64,000 nt of DNA, from positions 8,452-72,451 of the forward strand of contig JBDRLW010000046.1 in the NCBI GenBank assembly GCA_043812655.1, given 5' to 3'. A program made the position numbers and the translations under genes. How positions within the stretch are numbered: position 1 is the stretch's first letter; every line of letters begins with the position of its first letter. Positions 7,678 to 62,938 of the stretch are shown one piece after another. Source of the stretch: a bacterium (lineage in GTDB: Bacteria; Margulisbacteria; WOR-1; O2-12-FULL-45-9; XYB2-FULL-48-7). The notes below the pieces were generated by a model, which was not told the DNA's origin, ran no database searches, and saw only the letters and a list, made by a program, of their open reading frames with translations.

Positions 7678-9314
7678 GAGTCCTCATTATTGTTCCAAGA
7701 GTGCAGTTGGAAGAAACGGTAAATTATAACTATCTATTTCCTTTAGGGCTGGCTTATATTACATCGGTTTTAAAAAAAGCTGGACATAAAACCACCGTTT
7801 TAAATCTTAATCATTTTTCGGGGAGTGTTCCACAGTTAATAAATGAACGGATCGAGCGGGAAGGTCCGTTTGATCTTGCTTGTACGGGCGGCATCTCCAC
7901 CATTTATCGGCAAGTAAAACTAATTGTCGAAGCGCTGCGTCTAACTCATCCAGAGGTTAAATTGATCCTGGGCGGCGGGCTGATCTCGAGCGAGCCGGAA
8001 CTGATGTTGACCGCCTTAAAGCCGGATTACGTTATCCTAGAAGAAGGGGAAGAAACTATCGTTGAGCTTTTATCTTGTCTTGATAAGCAGGGTGAGATTG
8101 AAAAGGTCGCAGGAATCGGTTATTCCGGGCCTGGTGATCAAATTATTATGACTAAAGCACGTTTGCCGATCGCTGATATTGATTCGATTCCCTGGCCTGA
8201 TTTTGAAGCTTTCGAATTTGATAAATATTTGGATCACATGCGTCCGTCTGATCAGGTTGGCTATGAATTATATGACAAGCCAAGGGTTTACCCGATCATT
8301 TGCAGTCGTTCTTGTCCATTTTCCTGCACTTTTTGTTATCATCCAATAGGAAAAAGATATCGACAGCGATCGGTCGCATCAATAATGGCCGAGCTTAAGG
8401 TCATGGTTAAACGTTATCGGATAAATATCATTGGCATCTACGATGAGCTTTTTTCTAATGACCGGAAATGGTTAAATGAGTTTTGCGCGCAGATAAAAGT
8501 TTTTCTTCTCGAGCTTCCCTGGGAATGCAAATGGGGTTGTCAGATCAGAGTAGATAAATTAGATGATGAGATGTTAAAGATGATGAAGGACGCGGGATGT
8601 TTTTCCTTGAGTTATGGCTTTGAAAGCTATAGTCCAGTTGTTTTAAAAAGCATGGAAAAGCATATAACGCCAGAGCAGATCGATCGGGCCGTAAAACTAA
8701 CAATGAAAAACAACCTAAGTCTTCAGGCAAATTTTATTTTTGGCGATCCGGCCGAAACAGTTAAAACCGCTAAGGAAACATTGGATTATTGGCGGGCCAA
8801 TGTGGGAGCGGGGATAATGTTGACCTTTATTAATCCCTATCCAGGGACGCCGATCTACCAAAAGTGCCTGGGAAAAGGGTTGATAAAGGATAAATTAGCC
8901 TTTATTGATAACCAGATCTTCGGCATACGGAACATGACTGACAATATGACCGACCGCGAATTCATCAGCTTGTGGCGTGATATTAACAAGGCTGTAATTA
9001 AAGATCGTGTTTACGCAAAAAAAATAGAGCTTGATCAAGCGACTGATGGCACTTATGTTGTTTCGGTCGAATGCCCCCATTGCAAAAAGACGATTAATTA
9101 TAGTAATTATCTGCTAAAATCAAAACAGTATTTTTCAGTGATGTTATATTGCCGTTCTTGCCGGCGACGTTTTTTTGCGGCATCGAATATGTTCAGGTTG
9201 GCTTTTAATATTCTTTTATTAATGTATTCTATTATGCCGGCCTTTTCATACAGATTTTATGAATATATTTGGCCAAGGAGATATATGATTCGAAAGGTAT
9301 TAAAAAATGCGTAA
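7674..9314 (+). CDS. Cobalamin-binding radical SAM protein with C-terminal Zn-ribbon
   Basis: PLGLAY, EGEE, SRSCPFSCTFC (CxxxCxxC), GFES; C-terminal CPHC...CRSC. Confidence 0.88.
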   Translation: MRVLIIVPRVQLEETVNYNYLFPLGLAYITSVLKKAGHKTTVLNLNHFSGSVPQLINERIEREGPFDLACTGGISTIYRQVKLIVEALRLTHPEVKLILGGGLISSEPELMLTALKPDYVILEEGEETIVELLSCLDKQGEIEKVAGIGYSGPGDQIIMTKARLPIADIDSIPWPDFEAFEFDKYLDHMRPSDQVGYELYDKPRVYPIICSRSCPFSCTFCYHPIGKRYRQRSVASIMAELKVMVKRYRINIIGIYDELFSNDRKWLNEFCAQIKVFLLELPWECKWGCQIRVDKLDDEMLKMMKDAGCFSLSYGFESYSPVVLKSMEKHITPEQIDRAVKLTMKNNLSLQANFIFGDPAETVKTAKETLDYWRANVGAGIMLTFINPYPGTPIYQKCLGKGLIKDKLAFIDNQIFGIRNMTDNMTDREFISLWRDINKAVIKDRVYAKKIELDQATDGTYVVSVECPHCKKTINYSNYLLKSKQYFSVMLYCRSCRRRFFAASNMFRLAFNILLLMYSIMPAFSYRFYEYIWPRRYMIRKVLKNA

Positions 9315-54835: not shown

Positions 54836-55835
54836 ACAAATTAAGGAAGAGGCTTTAAGAGTTATCCAGGCGGCAGGAAGTTTAGCTGCGCTTGACGATG
54901 CTAGGGTTAAATTTACCGGTAAAAAGAGCGAGCTACTCGAATTATTAAAGTCGCTGGGAACTTTATCGGCTGAAGAGCGGCCAATTGTCGGGGCTTTGGT
55001 TAATGAGACCAAAGGATTGATCGAGCAGGCGCTAAGAGAAAAGAAGATCGTCCTTTTACAAACGGAACAAAAACAAAAGATCGCGGCTGAAAAGATCGAT
55101 GTTACTCTGCCGGGAAAAGGGATCAGGCGCGGCCATTATCATCCGCTAACCCAGGTGATGGAAGAAGCTAAAGGAATATTTTTGCGGCTTGGCTTTGAAG
55201 TAGCGCAAGGGCCCGAGATCGAAACCGAATATTATAATTTTGATGGCTTAAATATCCCGCCGCATCATCCATCGCGCGATATGTGGTCGACTTTGTTCAT
55301 TAAAGATAATTTACTTTTGCGGACTCATACATCGCCTGTCCAGATCAGGGTGATGGAAAAGAGGAAGCCGCCGCTGGCGATCATTGCCCCTGGCCGGGTT
55401 TTTCGCCGTGATTACGATGCGACTCATTCACCGGTTTTTCAACAGCTGGAAGGATTCCTGGTTAATGAAAATGTGACCTTTGGCGATCTCAAAGGGACTT
55501 TGACCGAATTCTTGCGCCAAATGTTTGGCAAAGACAAAAAAGTTCGCTTCCGCCCGAGTTTTTTCCCGTTCACCGAACCATCGGCCGAAGTCGATGTTGA
55601 ATGTGTTATGTGCAATGGTAAAGGTTGCCGGCTCTGCAAAGAGACAGGCTGGTTAGAAATTTTGGGCTCGGGGATGATCGATCCTAATGTTTTTAAAGCG
55701 GTCGGCTACGATGCGGAAAAGGTCAGCGGGTTCGCGTTTGGCATGGGGATCGACCGGATCGCGATGCTCAAATACGGAATTGATAATATCCACTTGATGT
55801 ATGAAGATGATGTTAGATTTTTGGAGCAATTTTAA
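54819..55835 (+). CDS. pheS: Phenylalanine--tRNA ligase alpha subunit
   Basis: LRTHTSPVQIR, DATHSP, FRPSFFPFTEPS, GFAFGMG. Confidence 0.98.
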   Translation: MQEKIKQIKEEALRVIQAAGSLAALDDARVKFTGKKSELLELLKSLGTLSAEERPIVGALVNETKGLIEQALREKKIVLLQTEQKQKIAAEKIDVTLPGKGIRRGHYHPLTQVMEEAKGIFLRLGFEVAQGPEIETEYYNFDGLNIPPHHPSRDMWSTLFIKDNLLLRTHTSPVQIRVMEKRKPPLAIIAPGRVFRRDYDATHSPVFQQLEGFLVNENVTFGDLKGTLTEFLRQMFGKDKKVRFRPSFFPFTEPSAEVDVECVMCNGKGCRLCKETGWLEILGSGMIDPNVFKAVGYDAEKVSGFAFGMGIDRIAMLKYGIDNIHLMYEDDVRFLEQF

Positions 55836-57814
55836 TGCGTGTACCAATTGATTGGCTAAAAGAGTTAATTACATTTCGTTCTGGGCCTGACCAGTTGGCG
55901 CAGATGCTGACCAGCGGCGGGCTGGAAACAGTTCTATTGCCGGATGATATTTTAGAGATCGATGTTTTGCCAAACCGGGCCGACGCTTGGAGTGTCCGGG
56001 GTATCGCCAGGGAAGTGTCAGCGCTAACAAAATTTAAAACTAAAGAGACAGCGCTTAAGATCAAAGAATCCGGTAAAAAGGCCGCCGATTTCGTTAAGGT
56101 TGAAGTCCGGGATAAAGATCTTTGTCCCCGTTATATGGCCAGGGTGATCAAGAATGTTAAGATCGTTGAATCGCCGGAATGGCTGAAAAAACGGTTGGAA
56201 AGGTCGGGGCTTCGCTCAATAAACAATGTTGTTGATGTTACCAATTATCTTCTCCACGAACTTGGCCAGCCGATGCACGCGTTTGACGCGAATTTGATCA
56301 AAGAGCAATTTATTATTGTCCGCCGGGCTAATCCTGGTGAAAAAGTGGTTACTTTAGACGGCAAAGAACATAATTTAGACCCAGATACTTTGGTTATAGC
56401 CGATCAAGAGAAGATAATCGCGGTGGCTGGCGTTATGGGCGCGGCCAATACCGAAGTAAACCAAGAAACGAAAACGATAATCTTGGAGTCAGCTTATTTT
56501 AATCCGATCTCGATCCATAAAACTTCTAAATTAATTAAAACCAGAACAGAATCTTCTATCCGCTTTGAGCATGGAGTTGACTGGAATGTGGTGGAAGAGG
56601 CTCTTGATCGTGGTGCGGCGATGATCGCCGAGCTCGGTCGGGGTGAGATCTATAAAGGTAAGATCGATGTTATCGGTAAAGAAATTAAGCCAATTATGAT
56701 CGAATTGCGGACCGATCGGGTCAATAAACTGCTCGGGACCGATATTTCCGTCGGTGATATGACCAGTATTTTGGGTCGGCTGGGGTTTGAATTTAAAAAA
56801 ATAGATAGTACTAGGTTAAAAGTTACAGTCCCGCTCTTCCGTTTAATGGATATTGAGCGGGAAATTGATCTGATCGAAGAAATTGCCAGGATCTGGGGTT
56901 ATAACCGGATCGTGGGGACAATGCCCAATACCGCGTTTGCAGGCAAAGAAATCGATAAACAAGATCTCTTTCACCAGAAGATCAGGGAAGTTTTAGTCGG
57001 TAGCGGCCTAAATGAAGCCCAAACATACAGCATGGTCGGGCCAAAAGACTTTGAAAAGAGCGGGTTTCCGCTGGTGGCCGCGGTCGGAATTGCCAATCCA
57101 CTGGCGATCGAATCGAGTTTAATGCGCCCAGCCATTTTGCCGGGGCTCCTTAATGTTCTAACGCACAATCAAAACCGGCAGGTGGAGAATGTCTTTGTTT
57201 TTGAGATTGGAAAAATATTCAAGCCGGAAGAAGTTTGGCATTTAGGCGGAGTCTTATCTGGTTCGCCGTTTTTAAGCGCGCTGGATAAAGGGGAGATCGA
57301 TTATGCTTATCTAAAAGGTATCCTCGAGAATTTATTTAAGGCGCTCAATATTAAACTGCCACGAGTGATGGAGACCAATAATCAACTTTTGCAGCCAGGG
57401 AAGGGTGCGGAAATTGAGGGAATTGGTGTATTTGGCGCGCTTCATCCTAATCTGCTCCATAATTATGAATTTACCAAACCAGTTTTTGTTTTTGAGTTTA
57501 ACCTAGAAGCCTTATTTAAATTATCTGGCCAAGAACCAAAATATAATCAATTGCCCAAATTTCCTCCTTCAGCCAGAGATATTTCCATGTTTATCCCCGC
57601 CGAACTTGAAAACCAGACGATCATTCAGCTTATCAAGAGGGTCGGGGGAGAGCTAGTTGAAGATGTTTTTCCTTTTGATAAATATAAAGATAGCATTGCC
57701 TATCGAGTCATTTATCGTCACCTCGATCGGACTCTGACTGAAGATGAAGTGAATGCTAAACATCAGGAGGTGGTTCAGGCTTTAGTTTCTAAGTTGATGG
57801 TTAAAATAAGGTAA
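55835..57814 (+). CDS. pheT: Phenylalanine--tRNA ligase beta subunit (lacks B2 OB domain)
   Basis: PNRAD, INNVVDVTNY, GQPMHAFD, DLIEEIAR, RTLTEDEV; 659 aa. Confidence 0.95.
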   Translation: MRVPIDWLKELITFRSGPDQLAQMLTSGGLETVLLPDDILEIDVLPNRADAWSVRGIAREVSALTKFKTKETALKIKESGKKAADFVKVEVRDKDLCPRYMARVIKNVKIVESPEWLKKRLERSGLRSINNVVDVTNYLLHELGQPMHAFDANLIKEQFIIVRRANPGEKVVTLDGKEHNLDPDTLVIADQEKIIAVAGVMGAANTEVNQETKTIILESAYFNPISIHKTSKLIKTRTESSIRFEHGVDWNVVEEALDRGAAMIAELGRGEIYKGKIDVIGKEIKPIMIELRTDRVNKLLGTDISVGDMTSILGRLGFEFKKIDSTRLKVTVPLFRLMDIEREIDLIEEIARIWGYNRIVGTMPNTAFAGKEIDKQDLFHQKIREVLVGSGLNEAQTYSMVGPKDFEKSGFPLVAAVGIANPLAIESSLMRPAILPGLLNVLTHNQNRQVENVFVFEIGKIFKPEEVWHLGGVLSGSPFLSALDKGEIDYAYLKGILENLFKALNIKLPRVMETNNQLLQPGKGAEIEGIGVFGALHPNLLHNYEFTKPVFVFEFNLEALFKLSGQEPKYNQLPKFPPSARDISMFIPAELENQTIIQLIKRVGGELVEDVFPFDKYKDSIAYRVIYRHLDRTLTEDEVNAKHQEVVQALVSKLMVKIR

Positions 57815-57827
57815 AACAAAATAACGA

Positions 57828-57926
57828 GGAAACCGCGAAGTTTATTCGCCGGTTTCCGAGTTGCTGAATGGTTTCGTAACCAGCGACTAAACCCCGATGT
57901 AGGAATCGGGGCAAGCGTCGCGGTTA
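57828..57926. repeat. Inverted REP-like doublet with nested CCCCGAT hairpin
   Basis: GGAAACCGCGAA-GTTTA-TTCGC-C-GGTTTCC and AACC-A-GCGAC[TAAACCCCGATGTAGGAATCGGGGCAAGC]GTCGCGGTT. Confidence 0.8.
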
Positions 57927-57943
57927 ATTAAGGAGGTTTTGAT

Positions 57944-58288
57944 ATGAAAAAATGTTTAATTGTTGCTTTAATTGCTTTTACTGCATTGATTTTTGCTAAG
58001 GTCTCTTTTGCTCAAGAAGCGCCGATTGATCAGCCAAAACCTGGCCAAGAAATGGCTCAACCTCAAAGACCGGGACCCGGTGGTCAACCCTGGTTGGCAC
58101 AATATATTGGAAGTAAGGTTAAATTTGTTTCGATAGCTAGAGCTTATGCATGGTATGAGTTTAAGGGAGAATTACAAAAAGTTGAAATATCGGGTATAGT
58201 TGTTAAGGATATAACAGGTTGGCCAAACGGTAAAGAAGCTTTTTTCCCTTTTGGAACAATAGTATTCATTCAACCGGTTTCGGATTAG
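57944..58288 (+). CDS. Hypothetical secreted protein (signal peptide, P/Q linker, small beta domain)
   Basis: SD AAGGAGGT; MKK plus hydrophobic stretch and SFA/QE cleavage site. Confidence 0.75.
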   Translation: MKKCLIVALIAFTALIFAKVSFAQEAPIDQPKPGQEMAQPQRPGPGGQPWLAQYIGSKVKFVSIARAYAWYEFKGELQKVEISGIVVKDITGWPNGKEAFFPFGTIVFIQPVSD

Positions 58289-58306
58289 TTGAGGATAATA
58301 AACAAC

Positions 58307-58334
58307 AAATCCCCACACTTAAGTGTGGGGATTT
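58307..58334. repeat. Perfect 28-bp palindrome, same family as the nnrE element; may double as terminator
   Basis: AAATCCCCACACTTAAGTGTGGGGATTT. Confidence 0.85.
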
Positions 58335-58365
58335 AATTATATACTGTTGGAGGTAAGATTGCTGT

Positions 58366-58491
58366 ATGGATAAAAAACAAAAGAGTTGGCAAAAACGGTT
58401 TGAAGTATTTTTGAAAAAAGCTGATAAAAAGATGGTAAGGATTTCGTACGAAGAAATATCAAGTGAAGTTACTAAAACTAGATGTGAATAG
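58366..58491 (+). CDS. Small 41-aa ORF, possible antitoxin remnant
   Basis: SD GGAGGT at 58349-54; MDKKQKSWQKRFEVFLKKADKKMVRISYEEISSEVTKTRCE. Confidence 0.4.
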   Translation: MDKKQKSWQKRFEVFLKKADKKMVRISYEEISSEVTKTRCE

Positions 58492-58523
58492 TTATTAGTT
58501 GAATGCTATAATAACTATTAATC

Positions 58524-58763
58524 ATGCCGACTTTATTTGTAATTAATGGCTATAGGTTTTTCTTCTTTAGTAACGAGGGAAATGAACCTAAACATGTTCA
58601 TATTGAAAAAGCGGGAAAATACGCAAAGTTCTGGCTTGATCCAATTATTTTAGCCGTAAATTACGGTTTTAATAGCCCCGAATTGAAATTAATCGAAGAA
58701 TTAGTCGAAAATAAAAAGAAAGAAATTGAGGTGAAATGGAATGAATATTTCAGTATCGGTTGA
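58524..58763 (+). CDS. DUF4160-family protein (putative toxin-antitoxin component)
   Basis: MPTLFVINGYRFFFFSNEGNEPKHVHI...AKFWL...WNEYF pattern. Confidence 0.85.
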   Translation: MPTLFVINGYRFFFFSNEGNEPKHVHIEKAGKYAKFWLDPIILAVNYGFNSPELKLIEELVENKKKEIEVKWNEYFSIG

Positions 58764-58980
58764 CGCCAAAGCTTCTGGCCTGAAAATTACCAATGAAGAT
58801 TTATCTGTTGATCTGATCGATGGGAGGGAAGTGAAAGTCCCTTTGGTTTGGTTCCCAAAGCTTTTACGGGCAACTCCCGCACAAAGGAACAATTATCGCC
58901 TAATTGGCAATGGCATCGGTATCCATTGGATTGATTTAGATGAGGATCTGTCAGTTGAGGGTTTATTAGCTGTTAAGTAA
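58741..58980 (+). CDS. DUF2442-family protein (putative toxin-antitoxin component)
   Basis: VDLIDGREVKVPLVWFPKL...GIHWIDLDEDLSVEGLL pattern; overlaps DUF4160 gene. Confidence 0.88.
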   Translation: MNISVSVDAKASGLKITNEDLSVDLIDGREVKVPLVWFPKLLRATPAQRNNYRLIGNGIGIHWIDLDEDLSVEGLLAVK

Positions 58981-58983
58981 ATC

Positions 58984-61557
58984 ATGCCCGACTTAACCCC
59001 GATGGCCCGGCAATACCAGGAGATCAAAGCCTCCCAAAAGGACGCGATCCTCTTTTTCCGCTTGGGTGATTTCTACGAAATGTTTTATGAGGATGCTGAA
59101 CTCGCCTCTCGCGAACTCGATCTAACCCTTACCGGCCGTGGGAAAGACGAAAACCGGATGCCGATGTGCGGCGTCCCATACCATGCTGCCGAAAGCTATA
59201 TTGCCAAGTTGATCGAAAAAGGGTACAAGGTGGCGATTTGCGAGCAGGTGGAAGACCCGAAACTGGCCAAAGGTTTAGTTAGAAGAGAAGTGATCAGAAT
59301 CATCACCCCCGGAACCGTAATTGAATCATCCATGCTGTTTGATAGGACTAATAACTATTTAATGGCGATTAATCAAGAAAAGGGTAAGTACGGATTAGCC
59401 TTTGTTGAGGCAACCACTGGTGAATTTAAGCTGTCTGATTTTGATTCGGTAGAAAAGATGCATGATGAAGTAACAAGAATTAATCCCTCAGAAATTATCG
59501 TTTCTGATCTGCTTCCCGAGGAACCGCGACGTTTAGTCGCAGGTTCCAGACCAGTTTCATTATTCAAGGACATCTATGACAACGAGACGGCAATTGAGAA
59601 GCTAAAAGAACATTTTGCTGTTCAGTCGCTCGAATCGTTTGGTTTAGATGGGAATGAAGTCGCCCTGGGTGCCGCGGCCGCGATCCTTGATTATCTCAAA
59701 GAGACGCAAAAGACCACCCTCGGTCACATTAATAACTTAAAGCATTATCAGACGGAAGAATTTATGTTTATTGATGCGACAACGAGACGGAATTTAGAAC
59801 TGACCGCCACCGCCCGGGACAAATCATTTAGAGGCAGCCTCCTTTGGGTTCTTGATCGGACAAAGACATCGATGGGGAGTCGATTATTGCGACAATGGTT
59901 GCTACAACCATTATTAGATGTAACCATAATTAATAAGCGCTTAGACGCGGTTGAAGAATTATTTGGTGATGCAATGCTGCGGTCGGAATTAAGCGAGGGC
60001 TTAAAGAAAGTCTTTGATATCGAACGGTTAACCGGTAAAGTTGCGACTCAAGCGGCAAATGCCAGGGATTTGGTGGCATTAAAAGAATCGTTAGAGCAGT
60101 TGCCGAGGATCAGGAATGTTATAAAAGAATGTAAGGCTGGATTATTAAAACAAATGGAACCAGAGAATAAATTCTCGGTTCCATCAAGAGATCCTGCAGA
60201 ATTAATTCCGCAGGATCAAGACACAATAACCGCGAATTCATTCGCTGGTTTCGAAAATCAAATCATAAACCTCATATCCAAATCCATCATCGACGAACCG
60301 CCATTTGTGATCAAAGAAGGAGGGCTGATCAAGCAAGGTTTTAATGCCGAACTTGATGAGCTCAAGAAAGCGACCAGCGGCGGGAAGCAATGGATCGCCG
60401 AGTTAGAAGTCTCGGAAAGAAAACGGTCAGGGATCAAATCGCTTAAGATCGGCTTTACGAAAGTTTTTGGTTATTACATCGAGGTGACGAATTCCAACCT
60501 TAATGAAGTGCCGCCAGATTATATCCGCAAACAGACGCTGGTTAACGCCGAGCGATTCATCACCCCCGAGTTAAAGGAGAAGGAAGCCCTGATCTTGAAC
60601 GCCGATGAACGGATGAAAGAGCTGGAATATCAAATTCTTTGTGATGTTCGGACGCAAGTTGCGGGTTTTACCAAGCAATTGCAGGCCGTTGCTTTCGCCT
60701 TAGCTCAAACGGATGTACTTTTATCCCTGGCCGAGGTCGCGGTTGAGAATAAGTATTGCCGCCCTATACTCCAGGCTCCGAACTCCCAACTCCGAACTAT
60801 TCAAGGCCGTCACCCGGTGGTAGAAAAAACTCTTAATGAATTCCAGTTTGTCCCTAATGATGTCGAATTAAATGATGAGCAACGATTCCTTTTAATAACT
60901 GGACCCAATATGGGTGGAAAATCAACTTATATGAGACAAGTCGCGCTTATCTGCCTCATGGCGCAGATCGGTTCATTTGTCCCGGCCAACAAAGCGGAAC
61001 TTTCATTAATAGATAGGATCTTTACCAGGATCGGAGCAATGGATGATATTTATTCCGGGCAATCGACCTTTATGGTAGAGATGACGGAGACGGCTAACAT
61101 TATTAATAATGCCACCGAAAAGAGTCTGATCATATTGGATGAGATCGGGCGGGGGACGTCGACTTTTGACGGGATGTCGATCGCGGCAGCGGTCGCCGAA
61201 TATATCCACACCAAGATCCGTGCCAAAACGCTTTTTGCCACTCATTATCACGAGATCACCCAGCTAGCTGATAAACATAAGGGGATGGCCAATGTTAATG
61301 TCCTGGTCAAAGAAGCTGGGGATAAAATAACTTTTTTACATCAAGTTGTTCCCGGCCCAGCTGACCGCTCTTATGGCATCCAAGTCGCCAAGTTAGCGGG
61401 TTTGCCAAATGAAGTAGTAAAAAGAGCAAAGGAAGTTTATAATACTTTGGAGATGGTTGAAAATGATTTGGGGAAAGAAGAGAAGAACAAGGCCGTTAAT
61501 TTAAAAGCCAGTAAAAGAGCTGTTTATAATAATAGAGACCAGGTTAGTTTATTTTAG
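58984..61557 (+). CDS. mutS: DNA mismatch repair protein MutS
   Basis: FRLGDFYEMF, CGVPYHA, TGPNMGGKST, DEIGRGTST, SYGIQVA; C-terminal QVSLF clamp-binding-like motif. Confidence 0.98.
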   Translation: MPDLTPMARQYQEIKASQKDAILFFRLGDFYEMFYEDAELASRELDLTLTGRGKDENRMPMCGVPYHAAESYIAKLIEKGYKVAICEQVEDPKLAKGLVRREVIRIITPGTVIESSMLFDRTNNYLMAINQEKGKYGLAFVEATTGEFKLSDFDSVEKMHDEVTRINPSEIIVSDLLPEEPRRLVAGSRPVSLFKDIYDNETAIEKLKEHFAVQSLESFGLDGNEVALGAAAAILDYLKETQKTTLGHINNLKHYQTEEFMFIDATTRRNLELTATARDKSFRGSLLWVLDRTKTSMGSRLLRQWLLQPLLDVTIINKRLDAVEELFGDAMLRSELSEGLKKVFDIERLTGKVATQAANARDLVALKESLEQLPRIRNVIKECKAGLLKQMEPENKFSVPSRDPAELIPQDQDTITANSFAGFENQIINLISKSIIDEPPFVIKEGGLIKQGFNAELDELKKATSGGKQWIAELEVSERKRSGIKSLKIGFTKVFGYYIEVTNSNLNEVPPDYIRKQTLVNAERFITPELKEKEALILNADERMKELEYQILCDVRTQVAGFTKQLQAVAFALAQTDVLLSLAEVAVENKYCRPILQAPNSQLRTIQGRHPVVEKTLNEFQFVPNDVELNDEQRFLLITGPNMGGKSTYMRQVALICLMAQIGSFVPANKAELSLIDRIFTRIGAMDDIYSGQSTFMVEMTETANIINNATEKSLIILDEIGRGTSTFDGMSIAAAVAEYIHTKIRAKTLFATHYHEITQLADKHKGMANVNVLVKEAGDKITFLHQVVPGPADRSYGIQVAKLAGLPNEVVKRAKEVYNTLEMVENDLGKEEKNKAVNLKASKRAVYNNRDQVSLF
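59520..59547. repeat. REP-like palindrome in frame inside mutS
   Basis: GGAACC-GCGAC-GTTTA-GTCGC-A-GGTTCC; same family as 57828-57926. Confidence 0.85.
60154..60250. repeat. Cluster of three REP-like palindromes in frame inside mutS
   Basis: ATGGAACC-A-GAGAA-TAAA-TTCTC-GGTTCCAT; GATCCTGCAGAATTAATTCCGCAGGATC; AACC-GCGAA-TTCA-TTCGC-T-GGTT. Confidence 0.85.
60769..60796. repeat. In-frame CTCCGAA heptamer tract in mutS
   Basis: CTCCAGG CTCCGAA CTCCCAA CTCCGAA. Confidence 0.75.
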
Positions 61558-61566
61558 GAGGATAAA

Positions 61567-61980
61567 ATGAAAAGAGGTATATTGGTTGGTTTGTTGGTTA
61601 GTGTGTTAGTGGGAAATGCGTTCGCGGCGGTAACGGAGATCGTGGGCGGGGTGAGGGATGGAGCTGCCTTAGGCATACAGCTTGAAAGCAGCGTAGCGAA
61701 AAACTTAACCATCCGCGGCGGGATCGAATTTGACTCTGGCAAACAGCCTTTCATCGGTTTTCTCGGTTTAAAATTTCCTTTAACTAGCATCGGCCGGATG
61801 CCTCTCGCGCTAGGCTTGGGGGCCGTTGGATATTTTGGCAATAATAAGACCGAGGCCGGAGTTTCTCTCTCTTTTATTTTCAACCGTTTCCTGGATATTA
61901 ATCCGCTCTTTTTGGAGCTGGGCGTCGACGCGGCTGGTACTGGTAAATTACTCGCCCAATTAGGCTACAAGATATACTGA
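61567..61980 (+). CDS. Hypothetical protein, probable small outer-membrane beta-barrel
   Basis: Signal peptide (AFA), alternating Gly/hydrophobic strands, C-terminal LGYKIY. Confidence 0.55.
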   Translation: MKRGILVGLLVSVLVGNAFAAVTEIVGGVRDGAALGIQLESSVAKNLTIRGGIEFDSGKQPFIGFLGLKFPLTSIGRMPLALGLGAVGYFGNNKTEAGVSLSFIFNRFLDINPLFLELGVDAAGTGKLLAQLGYKIY

Positions 61981-61987
61981 AGATATA

Positions 61988-62938
61988 ATGTTCAAATGGC
62001 TGGCTGACAAAATAACATATGATCTTTTACGTTTGACCCCAGGCTCGCGAGTGGGCGAAAGCGTTAACTTCTTCTTTTACGACCTGCCTAAGATCTACGT
62101 GATGCTGCTGACGATCATGTTCGTTATCGCCGTTTTACGCAGTTTTATCCCGCCGCGAAAGATCCGCCAGATTTTAAGCCATCGCCACGCATTTATTGGT
62201 AATATTCTAGCCGCTGGTTTTGGCGTCTTAACCCCATTTTGCACCTGTTCCGCCATTCCACTCTTTATCGGGATGCTCGAATCTGGCGTGCCGCTGGGAG
62301 TAACGATGTCTTTCCTGATCTCGTCGCCAACGGTCAATGAGATCGCTTTAGTCTTGTTATGGGGCCTGTTTGGCTGGAAAATAGCGCTAACCTATGTGGC
62401 CAGCGGATTAACGATCGCGGTCGTTTGCGGCTTTATCATCGGCCGCTTAAAAATGGAAAAATATCTTGAGGAGATAGTTTTTAAAACAAAGACAGTAGGG
62501 GAGACAATTGAAAAACAACCGAATTGGCAAGAGAGATTTACTTCCGCTTACGAATATACAATTGCTGTTTTTAGATCGGTCTGGTTCTATGTTCTGTTTG
62601 GCGTCGGGTTAGGTTCATTGATCCACGGTTACGTCCCGGTAGGCTTGGTCATAAAATACGCGGGGACAAATAATCCGCTGGCGGTGATCATCGCTGTCAT
62701 CTTAGGCGTGCCGCTTTACGCTAATTGCGCCGGCGCTTTGCCTGTTGTCCAAGCGATCCTGGAAAAAGGCTTGCCGCTTGGGACTAGCCTGGCGTTCATG
62801 ATGTCTGTTACCGCCTTGTCATTCCCGGAATTCATTATTTTGCGCAAGGTGATGAAGCCGCAGCTCCTCTTTACTTTTATCGGGATGGTAGCGACCGGAA
62901 TTATCTTGATCGGCTACTTTTTTAATCTCGTCTTTTAA
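61988..62938 (+). CDS. DUF318/ArsP-like permease
   Basis: PFCTCSAIP, FLISSP, GVPLY, TALSFPE; polytopic. Confidence 0.85.
   Translation: MFKWLADKITYDLLRLTPGSRVGESVNFFFYDLPKIYVMLLTIMFVIAVLRSFIPPRKIRQILSHRHAFIGNILAAGFGVLTPFCTCSAIPLFIGMLESGVPLGVTMSFLISSPTVNEIALVLLWGLFGWKIALTYVASGLTIAVVCGFIIGRLKMEKYLEEIVFKTKTVGETIEKQPNWQERFTSAYEYTIAVFRSVWFYVLFGVGLGSLIHGYVPVGLVIKYAGTNNPLAVIIAVILGVPLYANCAGALPVVQAILEKGLPLGTSLAFMMSVTALSFPEFIILRKVMKPQLLFTFIGMVATGIILIGYFFNLVF

Follow-up and report, generated by a model that had tools for sequence, protein, structure and literature searches.

Repeat-derived segments in mutS

In the 64,000-nucleotide window (the whole stretch of DNA analyzed, to which positions without a contig label refer), pheT (55835-57814, forward strand, Pfam) lies upstream of mutS (58984-61557, forward strand), whose 857-aa product, translated from the open reading frame list, hosts three repeat-derived segments. 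The interval between the two genes contains REP copies, a small ORF, and a DUF4160/DUF2442 pair, with no Y1 transposase gene there. One REP copy sits directly after pheT (57828-57857, forward; fold z -6.0), and another on the reverse strand (57878-57925; z -5.0) encloses a further hairpin, CCCCGAT...ATCGGGG, within its loop. A palindrome of a separate repeat family, CCCCACACTTAAGTGTGGGG, follows the small ORF (58311-58330).

The mutS product contains the Pfam domains MutS_I, II, III, IV, and V in order, all far above their cut-offs, and matches E. coli MutS structures over residues 5-826 (E = 3.7e-207). It is thus a full-length MutS1-type mismatch-repair ATPase, close to MutS proteins of solved structure. 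The Walker A, Walker B, and Phe-X-Glu stretches are all found, in agreement with a first-pass annotation of this DNA that had described the catalytic motifs as intact. MutL is encoded in the same genome.

Site 1 consists of one REP hairpin of the 24-nt type, oriented forward (59520-59547; family match C46:67973-67996). It is read as EPRRLVAGS, aa 180-188 within the MutS_II envelope. Folded as single-stranded DNA, 59518-59549 reaches -12.2 kcal/mol (z -7.0), with none of 200 shuffles as stable.

Site 2 is a MITE-like composite of three hairpins spanning 97 nt (60154-60250, forward) that encodes MEPENKFSVPSRDPAELIPQDQDTITANSFAG, aa 391-422 within the MutS_III envelope. As single-stranded DNA, 60150-60254 folds at -26.8 kcal/mol (z -8.7), and none of 200 shuffles was as stable for this segment or for any of its parts. 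The left arm (60154-60184) is a 23-nt-type REP on the reverse strand (family match C46:68609-68631, minus strand; 60152-60186 at -11.0 kcal/mol, z -6.8), and the right arm (60226-60250) is a 23-nt-type REP in forward orientation (family match C46:68679-68701; 60224-60252 at -7.1 kcal/mol, z -4.0). Between them lies a palindrome (60190-60217; 60188-60219 at -8.7 kcal/mol, z -6.0) centered on GCAGAATTAATTC, which is not of the REP family. Compared by eye, GCAGAATTAATTC-centered palindromes recur in the middle of other composite copies, and their outer stems vary among copies yet stay complementary. The composite is found elsewhere in the genome as eight paired and two degenerate copies, in at least 10 places.

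Site 3, which falls in the linker joining the MutS_III envelope to that of MutS_V, is a tandem array of about four CTCCGAA-like heptamers (60769-60798, forward) with units CTCC[A/G/C][G/A][G/A], read as LQAPNSQLR (aa 596-604). TRF reports C46:69227-69249, which is 60776-60798 of the window, with unit CTCCGAA. No hairpin was found in these heptamers when their single-stranded DNA fold was compared with shuffles. All four hairpins thus lie where the first-pass annotation had placed them, with fold z-scores of -4.0 to -7.0, and the three peptides it listed are the ones that translation yields.

Lengths were compared with an outgroup of 74 MutS proteins from distant phyla, 43-57% identical to the mutS product, and extra residues were found at site 2 only. 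The stretch from invariant P374 to P439 is 66 residues long here, compared with an outgroup median of 40 and with one of the 74 equally long, so that site 2 adds about 26 aa; the alignment with E. coli MutS has a gap opposite this segment. At site 1 there is no gain (22 residues; outgroup median 27), and site 3 has no net gain (21 against 20, or +1). All three segments are built from repeats, as had been proposed, but as insertions they account for a length gain only at site 2. Likewise, the excess of about 25 aa that the first-pass annotation gave for the core-domain region holds for the core-domain site and does not extend to sites 1 and 3. An AlphaFold2 model built from 17 sequences was of poor quality as a whole (its mean pLDDT was 59.8, and domain I scored about 30) and was used for local contrast around site 2 only. 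There, residues 395-420 (pLDDT <50) are predicted as coil flanked by two confident helices, consistent with an insert accommodated as a loop.

The hairpin family and the Y1 transposase genes that it flanks

Three of the four mutS hairpins fit the motif AACC-G[C/A]GAx-loop TT(T/C)A-xTC[G/T]C-N-GGTT, the architecture of the intergenic copies after pheT, and they do so in both orientations as the first-pass annotation had noted: 59520-59547 and 60226-60250 are alike, and 60154-60184 is opposite. A regular expression detected 77 family copies in the genome, after three of 80 matches (C8:41367, C15:2864, and C22:31875) were removed by eye as unrelated. An independent IUPAC pattern gave 71 matches against one for its reversed control. 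Stems covary across the family, and many copies form (-,+) inverted pairs 34-72 nt apart. Short imperfect palindromes, many dispersed copies, and inverted doublets are the features of REP and REPIN elements. The listed copies begin (G)GAACC and none has a GTAG head; GACG occurs only in GCGACG variants.

Loci with at least three independent REP events per 4 kb are limited to a transposase locus on C5 and the pheT-mutS region. The clustering statistic at pheT-mutS is modest, because random placement yields at least one cluster of three in 31% of cases and this locus was picked post hoc.

Two Y1 transposase genes, C3:87979-88329 and C5:25605-25946, are each bracketed by inverted family copies, as in REP/REPIN-RAYT systems. 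The same bracketing is seen upstream of mutS in the related genomes G003 and G019. The C3 and C5 proteins pass the NCBIfam IS200 model NF033573 (86.0 and 81.4 bits; cut-off 55) and fail the RAYT model NF047646 (46.5 and 45.5 bits; cut-off 80). They are 42.5% identical to each other and are the two REP-flanked members among three PF01797 matches in the genome; blastp with a threshold of E <= 1e-3 matched the third to neither. The several near-identical autonomous copies characteristic of IS200/IS605 elements were not found. The only RAYT-type gene of the genome lies on C10, and the palindromes on its flanks are of another kind, headed by GTAG (by eye). Both ends of the site-2 composite correspond in sequence to those of the C3 transposase unit, with the gene absent, and the right end of that unit reads exactly as AATAACCGCGAATTCATTCGC of the right arm. 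Judging from the flanking copies, the resident Y1 transposases probably mobilize the REP family.

In-frame copies in other proteins

At least 13 proteins besides the mutS product carry in-frame copies of the family. Among 20 host frames examined, 13 REPs lie inside or between Pfam domain stretches of 10 proteins: an aminotransferase, LarC, a P-type ATPase, the PolA 3'-5' exonuclease, LipA, a UvrD-type helicase, QueA, MurG, TsaD, and MiaA. Another four REPs are internal to three further proteins, and with the three in mutS the translated internal REPs make up 20 of the 77 copies. As read from the listed copies, the REP unit is open in five of six reading frames. Repair genes account for three of the 14 host proteins, and all three are long. 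These are palindromic repeats in frame within functional protein genes, a feature shared with Rickettsia palindromic elements (RPEs). Heptamers are also abundant: arrays of period 7 number 150 genome-wide and those of period 6 three, and 107 of the 150 lie inside open frames of at least 150 aa.

Repeats at the MutS loops of related genomes

Of 31 genomes of the order, 29 contain the hairpin family and 21 have a PF01797 match. PF01797 is absent from G002, which has 40 pattern matches, and from G006 and G012. Both G006 and G012 keep intact hairpins in mutS despite the lack of a Y1 match, and two of the five pattern matches in all of G006 are inside mutS. The gene order pheT-Y1-mutS occurs in five genomes representing both families of the order. 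No clear pattern emerged between an adjacent Y1 gene and the REP load of mutS in these relatives; G019 and G003 have the Y1 gene adjacent, yet their mutS genes lack any REP of the strict pattern.

In other genomes of the order, the three MutS loops are again hot spots that carry either these repeats or different ones. In the site comparisons L022 was left out (its longest frame is not mutS), and L011 and L023 were partial. A family REP is found at site 1 in six of 18 MutS proteins, and a seventh has half of one. The hairpin is at the equal position in L005, L007, L012, and L020, and L018 has a hairpin pair. At site 2, six of 19 relatives have a family REP, four a CCCCACAC palindrome, and eight no hairpin; the CCCCACACTTAAGTGTGGGG family sits in frame there in four relatives (SPHLSVG/SPHLNVG). 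Other heptamers occupy site 3, and the orthologous sites differ among genera. The mutS frame is intact here and in 17 of 17 full-length relatives aligned.

Independent assemblies and a search for insert-less alleles

The first-pass annotation had named assembly chimerism as a way in which the hairpins could be spurious, but they recur without gaps in contigs of other runs. Identical contigs cover site 1 (X1 record 4 and X2 record 9) and 60178-60345 (X3 record 21), and a contig of about 90% identity (X4 record 27) spans 59789-60373 gap-free. Three other studies supplied contigs that contain the inserts, one of them from the relative of about 90% identity. The first-pass annotation had equally allowed that no length difference from orthologues might exist, contrary to the gain at site 2 reported above.

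No contig joining across an insert was found among the Logan contigs, which are of low depth and in which rare variants are invisible. The best holder had 0.29 of the sampled words, and large parts of mutS were uncovered. Joints were detected at 59030>59149, 59078>59233, 59273>60523, 60482>60550, and 60998>61221. Because none of these brackets an insert and their sides are short, they probably come from other organisms.

Origin of the mutS hairpins

We hypothesize, with a probability of about 0.7, that the mutS hairpins are REP/REPIN-like non-autonomous mobile copies tolerated in permissive loops and served by IS200-type Y1 transposases. Resident IS200-type HUH/Y1 single-stranded DNA transposases would serve the REP family, and the 97-nt triple hairpin would represent a transposase unit without its gene, composed of a left REP, an inner palindrome, and a right REP. 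Copies would land genome-wide, and those surviving within genes would be the ones that keep the frame, are free of stops, and lie in permissive surface loops. MutS would offer three such loops, which members of the order may keep refilling with REPs, other palindromes, and slippage-prone heptamers. The pheT-mutS interval could be the present or past home of a Y1 gene; in that case nearby insertion may raise the load in mutS, and REPs may have hopped locally around it. That coding REPs are tolerated in mutS, as suggested in the first-pass annotation, is borne out by a full-length, in-frame product with five domains, by the placement of the inserts in loops, and by the filling of the same loops in relatives. 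The inserts are probably neutral for MutS function.

The conservation of site 1 bears on a different explanation, in which selection acts on the hairpins as nucleic acid, for instance because they stabilize the mRNA, cause pausing, or bind a protein, so that they would be more than passengers. Where residues are identical, the codon is shared in 79 of 86 site-1 comparisons (92%) against 2938 of 6015 (49%) in the rest of mutS, from five genomes of four genera that are related and so non-independent samples. Such a pattern would be unexpected for an old passenger that is purely neutral, but repeated re-insertion or gene conversion would yield it equally. Variation among the compared site-1 copies is confined to the loop and leaves the stems intact, and selection on the nucleic acid would also suit the covarying stems of the family and the hairpins that G006 and G012 retain with no Y1 transposase found, two of five matches being in mutS in G006. 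However, the same elements also occur between genes and within at least 13 unrelated proteins, relatives have unrelated palindromes or none at those loops (none in eight of 19 at site 2), and Rfam returned no match on 57000-62000 at E <= 1. We therefore regard selection of this kind as unlikely. A broader version holds that the Y1/REP system is functionally coupled to mismatch repair in this order, with Y1 beside mutS since before the two families split, and that the REPs in mutS are kept at the nucleotide level and act in cis on expression or through reversible disruption. If true, this would tie repeat activity to the control of mutation and recombination, but we consider it quite improbable.

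The first-pass annotation also proposed that gain or excision of the inserts could modulate the mutation rate, making mutS a contingency locus in which precise excision switches MutS. mutS is a determinant of the mutation rate, the other hosts include PolA and a UvrD-type helicase, and the heptamer arrays are slippage-prone, with one 7-nt step shifting the frame; a passage of PMC3733652 speculates in a like manner about UvrABCD, RecBCD, PolA, and DnaE2. Against this, no contig skips an insert, and the frames are whole here and in 17 relatives. The site-1 hairpin is identically placed in at least five genera, which indicates that it is old and stable and does not switch. The inserts lie in variable loops outside the conserved motif stretches, and mutS belongs to a set of at least 14 hosts, many of them non-repair genes and the longer ones larger targets. 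These results run against the proposal, and we find such a switch highly improbable. Finally, repeats are classic points of chimerism, and a mis-assembled bin in this 46-contig draft might have stitched hairpins into mutS. Such an artefact is hardly credible given the independent gap-free contigs, identical or about 90% identical, the open frame of mutS, and the repeats at the same sites in separately assembled relatives.

Comparison with known repeat systems

Intragenic REPs, including those in repair genes, are already in print. Di Nocera et al. 2013 describe in-frame REPs and dimers encoding about 10-30 aa in known proteins, with many replication and repair genes among the hosts (UvrABCD, UvrD, PolA, RecBCD) and speculation on mutators (PMC3733652); its main text has no occurrence of mutS. 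Ours differs in belonging to another repeat family and another phylum and in filling the same loops order-wide. Rickettsia RPEs (Ogata et al. 2000, as summarized in PMC3733652 and PMC10969869) are in-frame palindromic selfish DNA in many unrelated housekeeping genes. They are described as about 100-150 bp long, with their own conserved peptide in presumed surface loops. By that description they differ from the 23-24 nt units and 97-nt composite found here, which are tied to Y1 genes; the passages concerned name no RPE transposase.

REP/REPIN-RAYT systems, or REPtrons, as outlined for Escherichia and Pseudomonas (10.1101/2022.05.22.493013, 10.1101/2021.07.10.451892), resemble the present case in having tens of short imperfect palindromes, inverted doublets, and a single-copy HUH/Y1 gene within an inverted bracket. 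In both, the transposase gene holds its genomic place (here pheT-Y1-mutS), as vertical inheritance predicts. Published REP superfamilies, as characterized in PMC3733652, have a GTAG or CGTC tetranucleotide at one end. Unlike REPtrons, the system described here has IS200-type transposases, no GTAG head, and about a quarter of its copies translated within genes.

mutS thus joins the known cases in which protein loops accommodate selfish DNA, and the mutation-rate switch is without support. It extends translated selfish DNA in essential genes, known from Rickettsia and REP-rich Proteobacteria, to an order of small-genome uncultured bacteria, and it ties translated repeats to a transposase of IS200 rather than RAYT type. 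Certain loops of proteins, including three in MutS, are refilled time and again by differing repeat families. For annotation, insert peptides such as EPRRLVAGS should be treated as repeat-derived and not as functional motifs. Such inserts could also be used for charting permissive loops of MutS and other enzymes and for studying the persistence of REP-like elements.

Two further classes of element offer comparisons. IS200/IS605 elements are insertion sequences with hairpin ends, and gene-less hairpin derivatives of them exist. The present system shares with them an IS200-type TnpA and hairpin ends, and its triple hairpin looks like two ends joined without a gene. It differs in that each Y1 gene is unique and the flanking hairpins are mutually inverted, as in REPtrons. 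The STRR heptamer repeats of heterocystous cyanobacteria are few-unit 7-nt arrays of several types scattered over the genome. The scattered 7-nt tandem arrays found here are similar but differ in that most of them lie in open frames and orthologous sites swap heptamers by genus.

Repeat-derived segments in MutS

The mutS gene (58984–61557, + strand) encodes an 857-aa protein that matches 5/5 Pfam MutS domains and aligns with E. coli MutS structures at E = 3.7e-207; a MutL gene was found elsewhere in the source genome (G000, contig C30). Its three repeat-derived segments are a hairpin at 59520–59547 (site 1), a triple hairpin at 60154–60250 (site 2) and a heptamer tandem at 60769–60798 (site 3). 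A first-pass annotation, made from the sequence alone, had placed four hairpins here and quoted the encoded peptides; the hairpins lie where it put them and the peptides are correct (aa 180–188, 391–422 and 596–604). Folded as single-stranded DNA, the single hairpins reach −7.1 to −12.2 kcal/mol each and the 105-nt stretch with three hairpins −26.8 kcal/mol, with z-scores of −4.0 to −8.7 and 0/200 shuffles equally stable. Site 3 consists of ~4 CTCCGAA-like units (TRF), and folding gave no hairpin there.

That annotation had also put the core-domain region at about 25 aa longer than usual. Comparison with an outgroup of 74 MutS (74/80 loci from other phyla, longest frame at least 780 aa) bears this out and traces the excess to site 2 alone. 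The P374–P439 stretch around site 2 spans 66 residues against an outgroup median of 40 (as long in 1/74), while S174–K195 at site 1 has 22 against 27 (71/74) and N589–R609 at site 3 has 21 against 20 (7/74). The whole core, M7–G830, measures 824 against 806 (9/74), and the aligned full-length MutS of the same order are 806–859 aa long. An AlphaFold2 model based on 17 aligned sequences is of poor quality as a whole (mean pLDDT 59.8). It shows residues 395–420 as coil with pLDDT <50, bounded by helices 386–391 and 419–434 in stretches with mean pLDDT 80–90.

A REP family and associated transposases

Three of the four hairpins belong to a family of REPs that we searched for on both strands of the 1.62-Mb draft (46 contigs) with a regular expression: AACC, a 5-nt stem, a 4–6-nt loop, the complement of the stem (one mismatch allowed), a single bulged base, and GGTT. 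Three of the 80 matches (C8:41367, C15:2864, C22:31875), which have no G[C/A]GA stem, were dropped by eye. The remaining 77 copies fall into a 24-nt type (54) and a 23-nt type (23). A separate IUPAC pattern gave 71 matches versus 1 in a reversed control. Copies frequently form (−,+) pairs at 34–72 nt spacing, and merging of pairs yields 54 events. At least three events within 4 kb occur only at the C5 transposase locus and the pheT–mutS locus; under random placement, 31% of trials had one or more such clusters and 1.2% had three or more such windows. On C46 (85 kb), of which positions 8452–72451 form the window, 4/4 strict family matches fall between the pheT end and mutS site 2. At 57878–57925, and at site 2 of two related mutS loci (L007, L009), the loop of a REP copy encloses a further hairpin, suggesting that insertions also target the loops of hairpins.

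Three genes for Y1 transposases (PF01797, Y1_Tnp) were detected in G000. One lies between pyrK-like and pyrD-like ORFs (C3:87979–88329) and one between purD-like and recJ-like ORFs (C5:25605–25946), all four ORFs named by eye from translations, and inverted family copies stand on both sides of each. Their proteins pass the NCBIfam IS200 model (86.0 and 81.4 bits, respectively; cut-off 55) and fail the RAYT model (46.5 and 45.5 bits; cut-off 80). The C5 frame (L002 1414–1848, minus strand) terminates in the REP-encoded peptide KEPRVSLAGS. In the purD frame beside it, a REP sits just upstream of the conserved start region. The third gene (C10:370–894, L003) passes RAYT model NF047646 (95.2 bits). 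The palindromes on either side of it, seen by eye, have a GTAG head and a different sequence; gene and palindromes would make up a second, classical REPtron in this genome.

The C3 unit runs REP(−), inner hairpin, transposase gene, further hairpin, REP(+), and mutS 60154–60250 runs REP(−), a palindrome centred on GCAGAATTAATTC, REP(+). Both REPs of the triple hairpin are almost letter-for-letter equal to the C3 unit ends, and the right arm AATAACCGCGAATTCATTCGC is identical between the two. Judged by this likeness, the mutS triple hairpin is apparently the C3 unit without its gene. Such composites number eight as REP pairs, plus two in which one of the arms is degenerate (C8:8589, C4:10068). 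Between copies, the middle palindrome varies in its outer stem, with complementarity kept. The composite at C12:32859–32987 weakly matches MutS residues 390–431 in tblastn.

The same sites across the order

MutS is present in 28/31 genomes of the order, G000 counted, and 20 loci were aligned (L022 excluded as not mutS; L011 and L023 partial). At site 1, the same REP hairpin occupies the same codons in L005, L007, L012 and L020; L018 has a REP pair, L010 a half copy, G023 a pattern match at the same place, and most other relatives unrelated hairpins. Site 2 holds a single family REP in L005, L009 and L020, a pair in L018, and in L007 a family REP whose loop encloses another hairpin. In L006, L008, L010 and L011 it carries the palindrome CCCCACA(C/T)TTAA(G/A)TGTGGGG in frame, read as SPHLSVG or SPHLNVG, and in 8/19 MutS it has no hairpin and the loop is short. 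Heptamer tandems of other sequence and equal length fill site 3 in most relatives, other genera included (e.g., GTAACGG, ACGCGTA, TTACGAA, ACTCCGA). Since repeats recur at the same sites in relatives, these three MutS loops are repeat hot spots across the order.

Within the site-1 REP, identical residues use the same codon in 79/86 comparisons (L004, L005, L007, L012, L020), against 2938/6015 in the rest of mutS from the same five loci; the genomes are related and the figures descriptive only. All differences among site-1 copies fall within the loop. G006 (95% complete) and G012 (91% complete) lack a PF01797 match, and both retain the mutS hairpins. These observations could be accounted for by selection on the hairpin, by gene conversion with copies elsewhere as donors, or by insertion that recurs at the site.

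The pheT–mutS interval

The REP pattern was found in 29/31 genomes (top counts G023 77, G000 71, G025 42, G002 40) and PF01797 in 21/31. G002 (96% complete) has its 40 pattern matches and no PF01797 match, and its REPs apparently persist in the absence of any transposase that could be detected.

An IS200-type Y1 gene precedes mutS, on the same strand and by no more than ~150 nt, in G003, G019 and G023; in G010 and G013 it lies 1.5–1.9 kb upstream. In 5/5 cases, from two families, it follows pheT (G003:C11, G019:C16, G023:C60, G010:C3, G013:C25; loci L055–L059); in G023 the gene contains an internal TAG. The proteins compared (G003, G010, G013, G019) are mutually 56–59% identical, with G010 and G013 at 93%, and the two REP-flanked Y1 proteins of G000 share only 42–49% identity with these mutS-adjacent ones. 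The G000 interval contains two REP copies, a small ORF without a Pfam match and a DUF4160/DUF2442 pair, and no transposase gene. Local hopping from an ancestral neighbour transposase would be a reasonable idea for the source of REPs at pheT–mutS. The overlapping DUF4160/DUF2442 pair (58524–58980) stands directly upstream of mutS, where relatives have the transposase gene. After the small ORF, the intergenic palindrome CCCCACACTTAAGTGTGGGG (58311–58330) looks like a terminator; the same palindrome is translated in mutS of L006, L008, L010 and L011.

In-frame copies and the status of the mutS inserts

Stop-to-stop frames of at least 150 aa contain 45/80 regex matches versus 90.7% of 2000 random 24-nt sites; REPs are thus depleted from coding DNA, yet far from excluded. 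We scanned 20 host frames with Pfam: 16/20 matched a family at E ≤ 1e-5 and 4/20 had no match. Nine proteins have the REP inside the envelope of a matched domain: a class I/II aminotransferase, QueA and MurG (two REPs each), a P-type ATPase, LipA, TsaD, MiaA, PolA (3'-5' exonuclease domain) and a UvrD-type helicase-nuclease. In LarC it lies between two matched stretches, and two PMT_2 glycosyltransferases and a 5080-residue open frame hold four further internal REPs, for a total, with three in mutS, of 20/77 copies in 14 proteins. REPs ahead of the first domain in AIRC, Peripla_BP_2 and Metallophos frames may precede the true start. Orientation and frame set the recurrent peptides EPRRxVAGS, GTAxFSRRF, NRExHSQVP, EPAxxRRGS and NLRLNVAV. 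With in-frame copies in many genes, mutS is not special as a REP host.

The repeat-derived segments in mutS are real and were well described by the first-pass annotation; most likely they are passengers, a reading to which we give a probability of about 0.7. The same annotation proposed that gain or excision of inserts modulates mutation rate. Mutator effects have been speculated upon in the main text of Di Nocera et al. 2013 (PMC3733652), which reports many intragenic REPs in UvrABCD, UvrD, PolA, RecBCD and DnaE2. Contigs of other sequencing runs cover site 1 (X1 record 4, X2 record 9), 60178–60345 (X3 record 21) and site 3 (X1 record 8) identically, and X4 record 27 spans 59789–60373 with 56 differences and no gap. 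No joint in these contigs brackets an insert, at a low depth where minority alleles could be missed; the proposal finds no support, and we consider a mutation-rate switch very improbable.

The inserts are a variant of the known intragenic REP or MITE insertions, distinguished by a transposase of IS200 type and by repeats lacking GTAG; the literature searched does not describe this for the lineage. The main text of PMC3733652 also describes intragenic REPs and REP dimers encoding 20–30 aa; "mutS" is absent from it, and its Additional file 3 may list the gene. Rickettsia RPEs are presented as the classic in-frame case (PMC3733652, PMC10969869), and REPIN-RAYT systems as vertically inherited with single-copy transposases (10.1101/2022.05.22.493013 and 10.1101/2021.07.10.451892). 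Our literature searches returned nothing on palindromic repeats in Saganbacteria and, for intragenic REPs in mutS, only an unrelated review. The present analysis adds the REP–transposase link in G000, the probable origin of the triple hairpin in the C3 unit, three order-wide MutS hot spots, pheT–Y1–mutS synteny and unexpectedly well-kept site-1 codons.

Heptamer arrays genome-wide

TRF arrays in G000 with at least 3 copies and a score of at least 36 comprise 150 of period 7, 3 of period 6, 28 of period 8 and 4 of period 9. Open frames of at least 150 aa contain 107/150 period-7 arrays, 89/107 of them in the inner 10–90% of the frame. The mutS unit (canonical AACTCCG) forms 5 arrays and its neighbour AACTCCC 7. 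The array at 60776–60798 is one of the 150.
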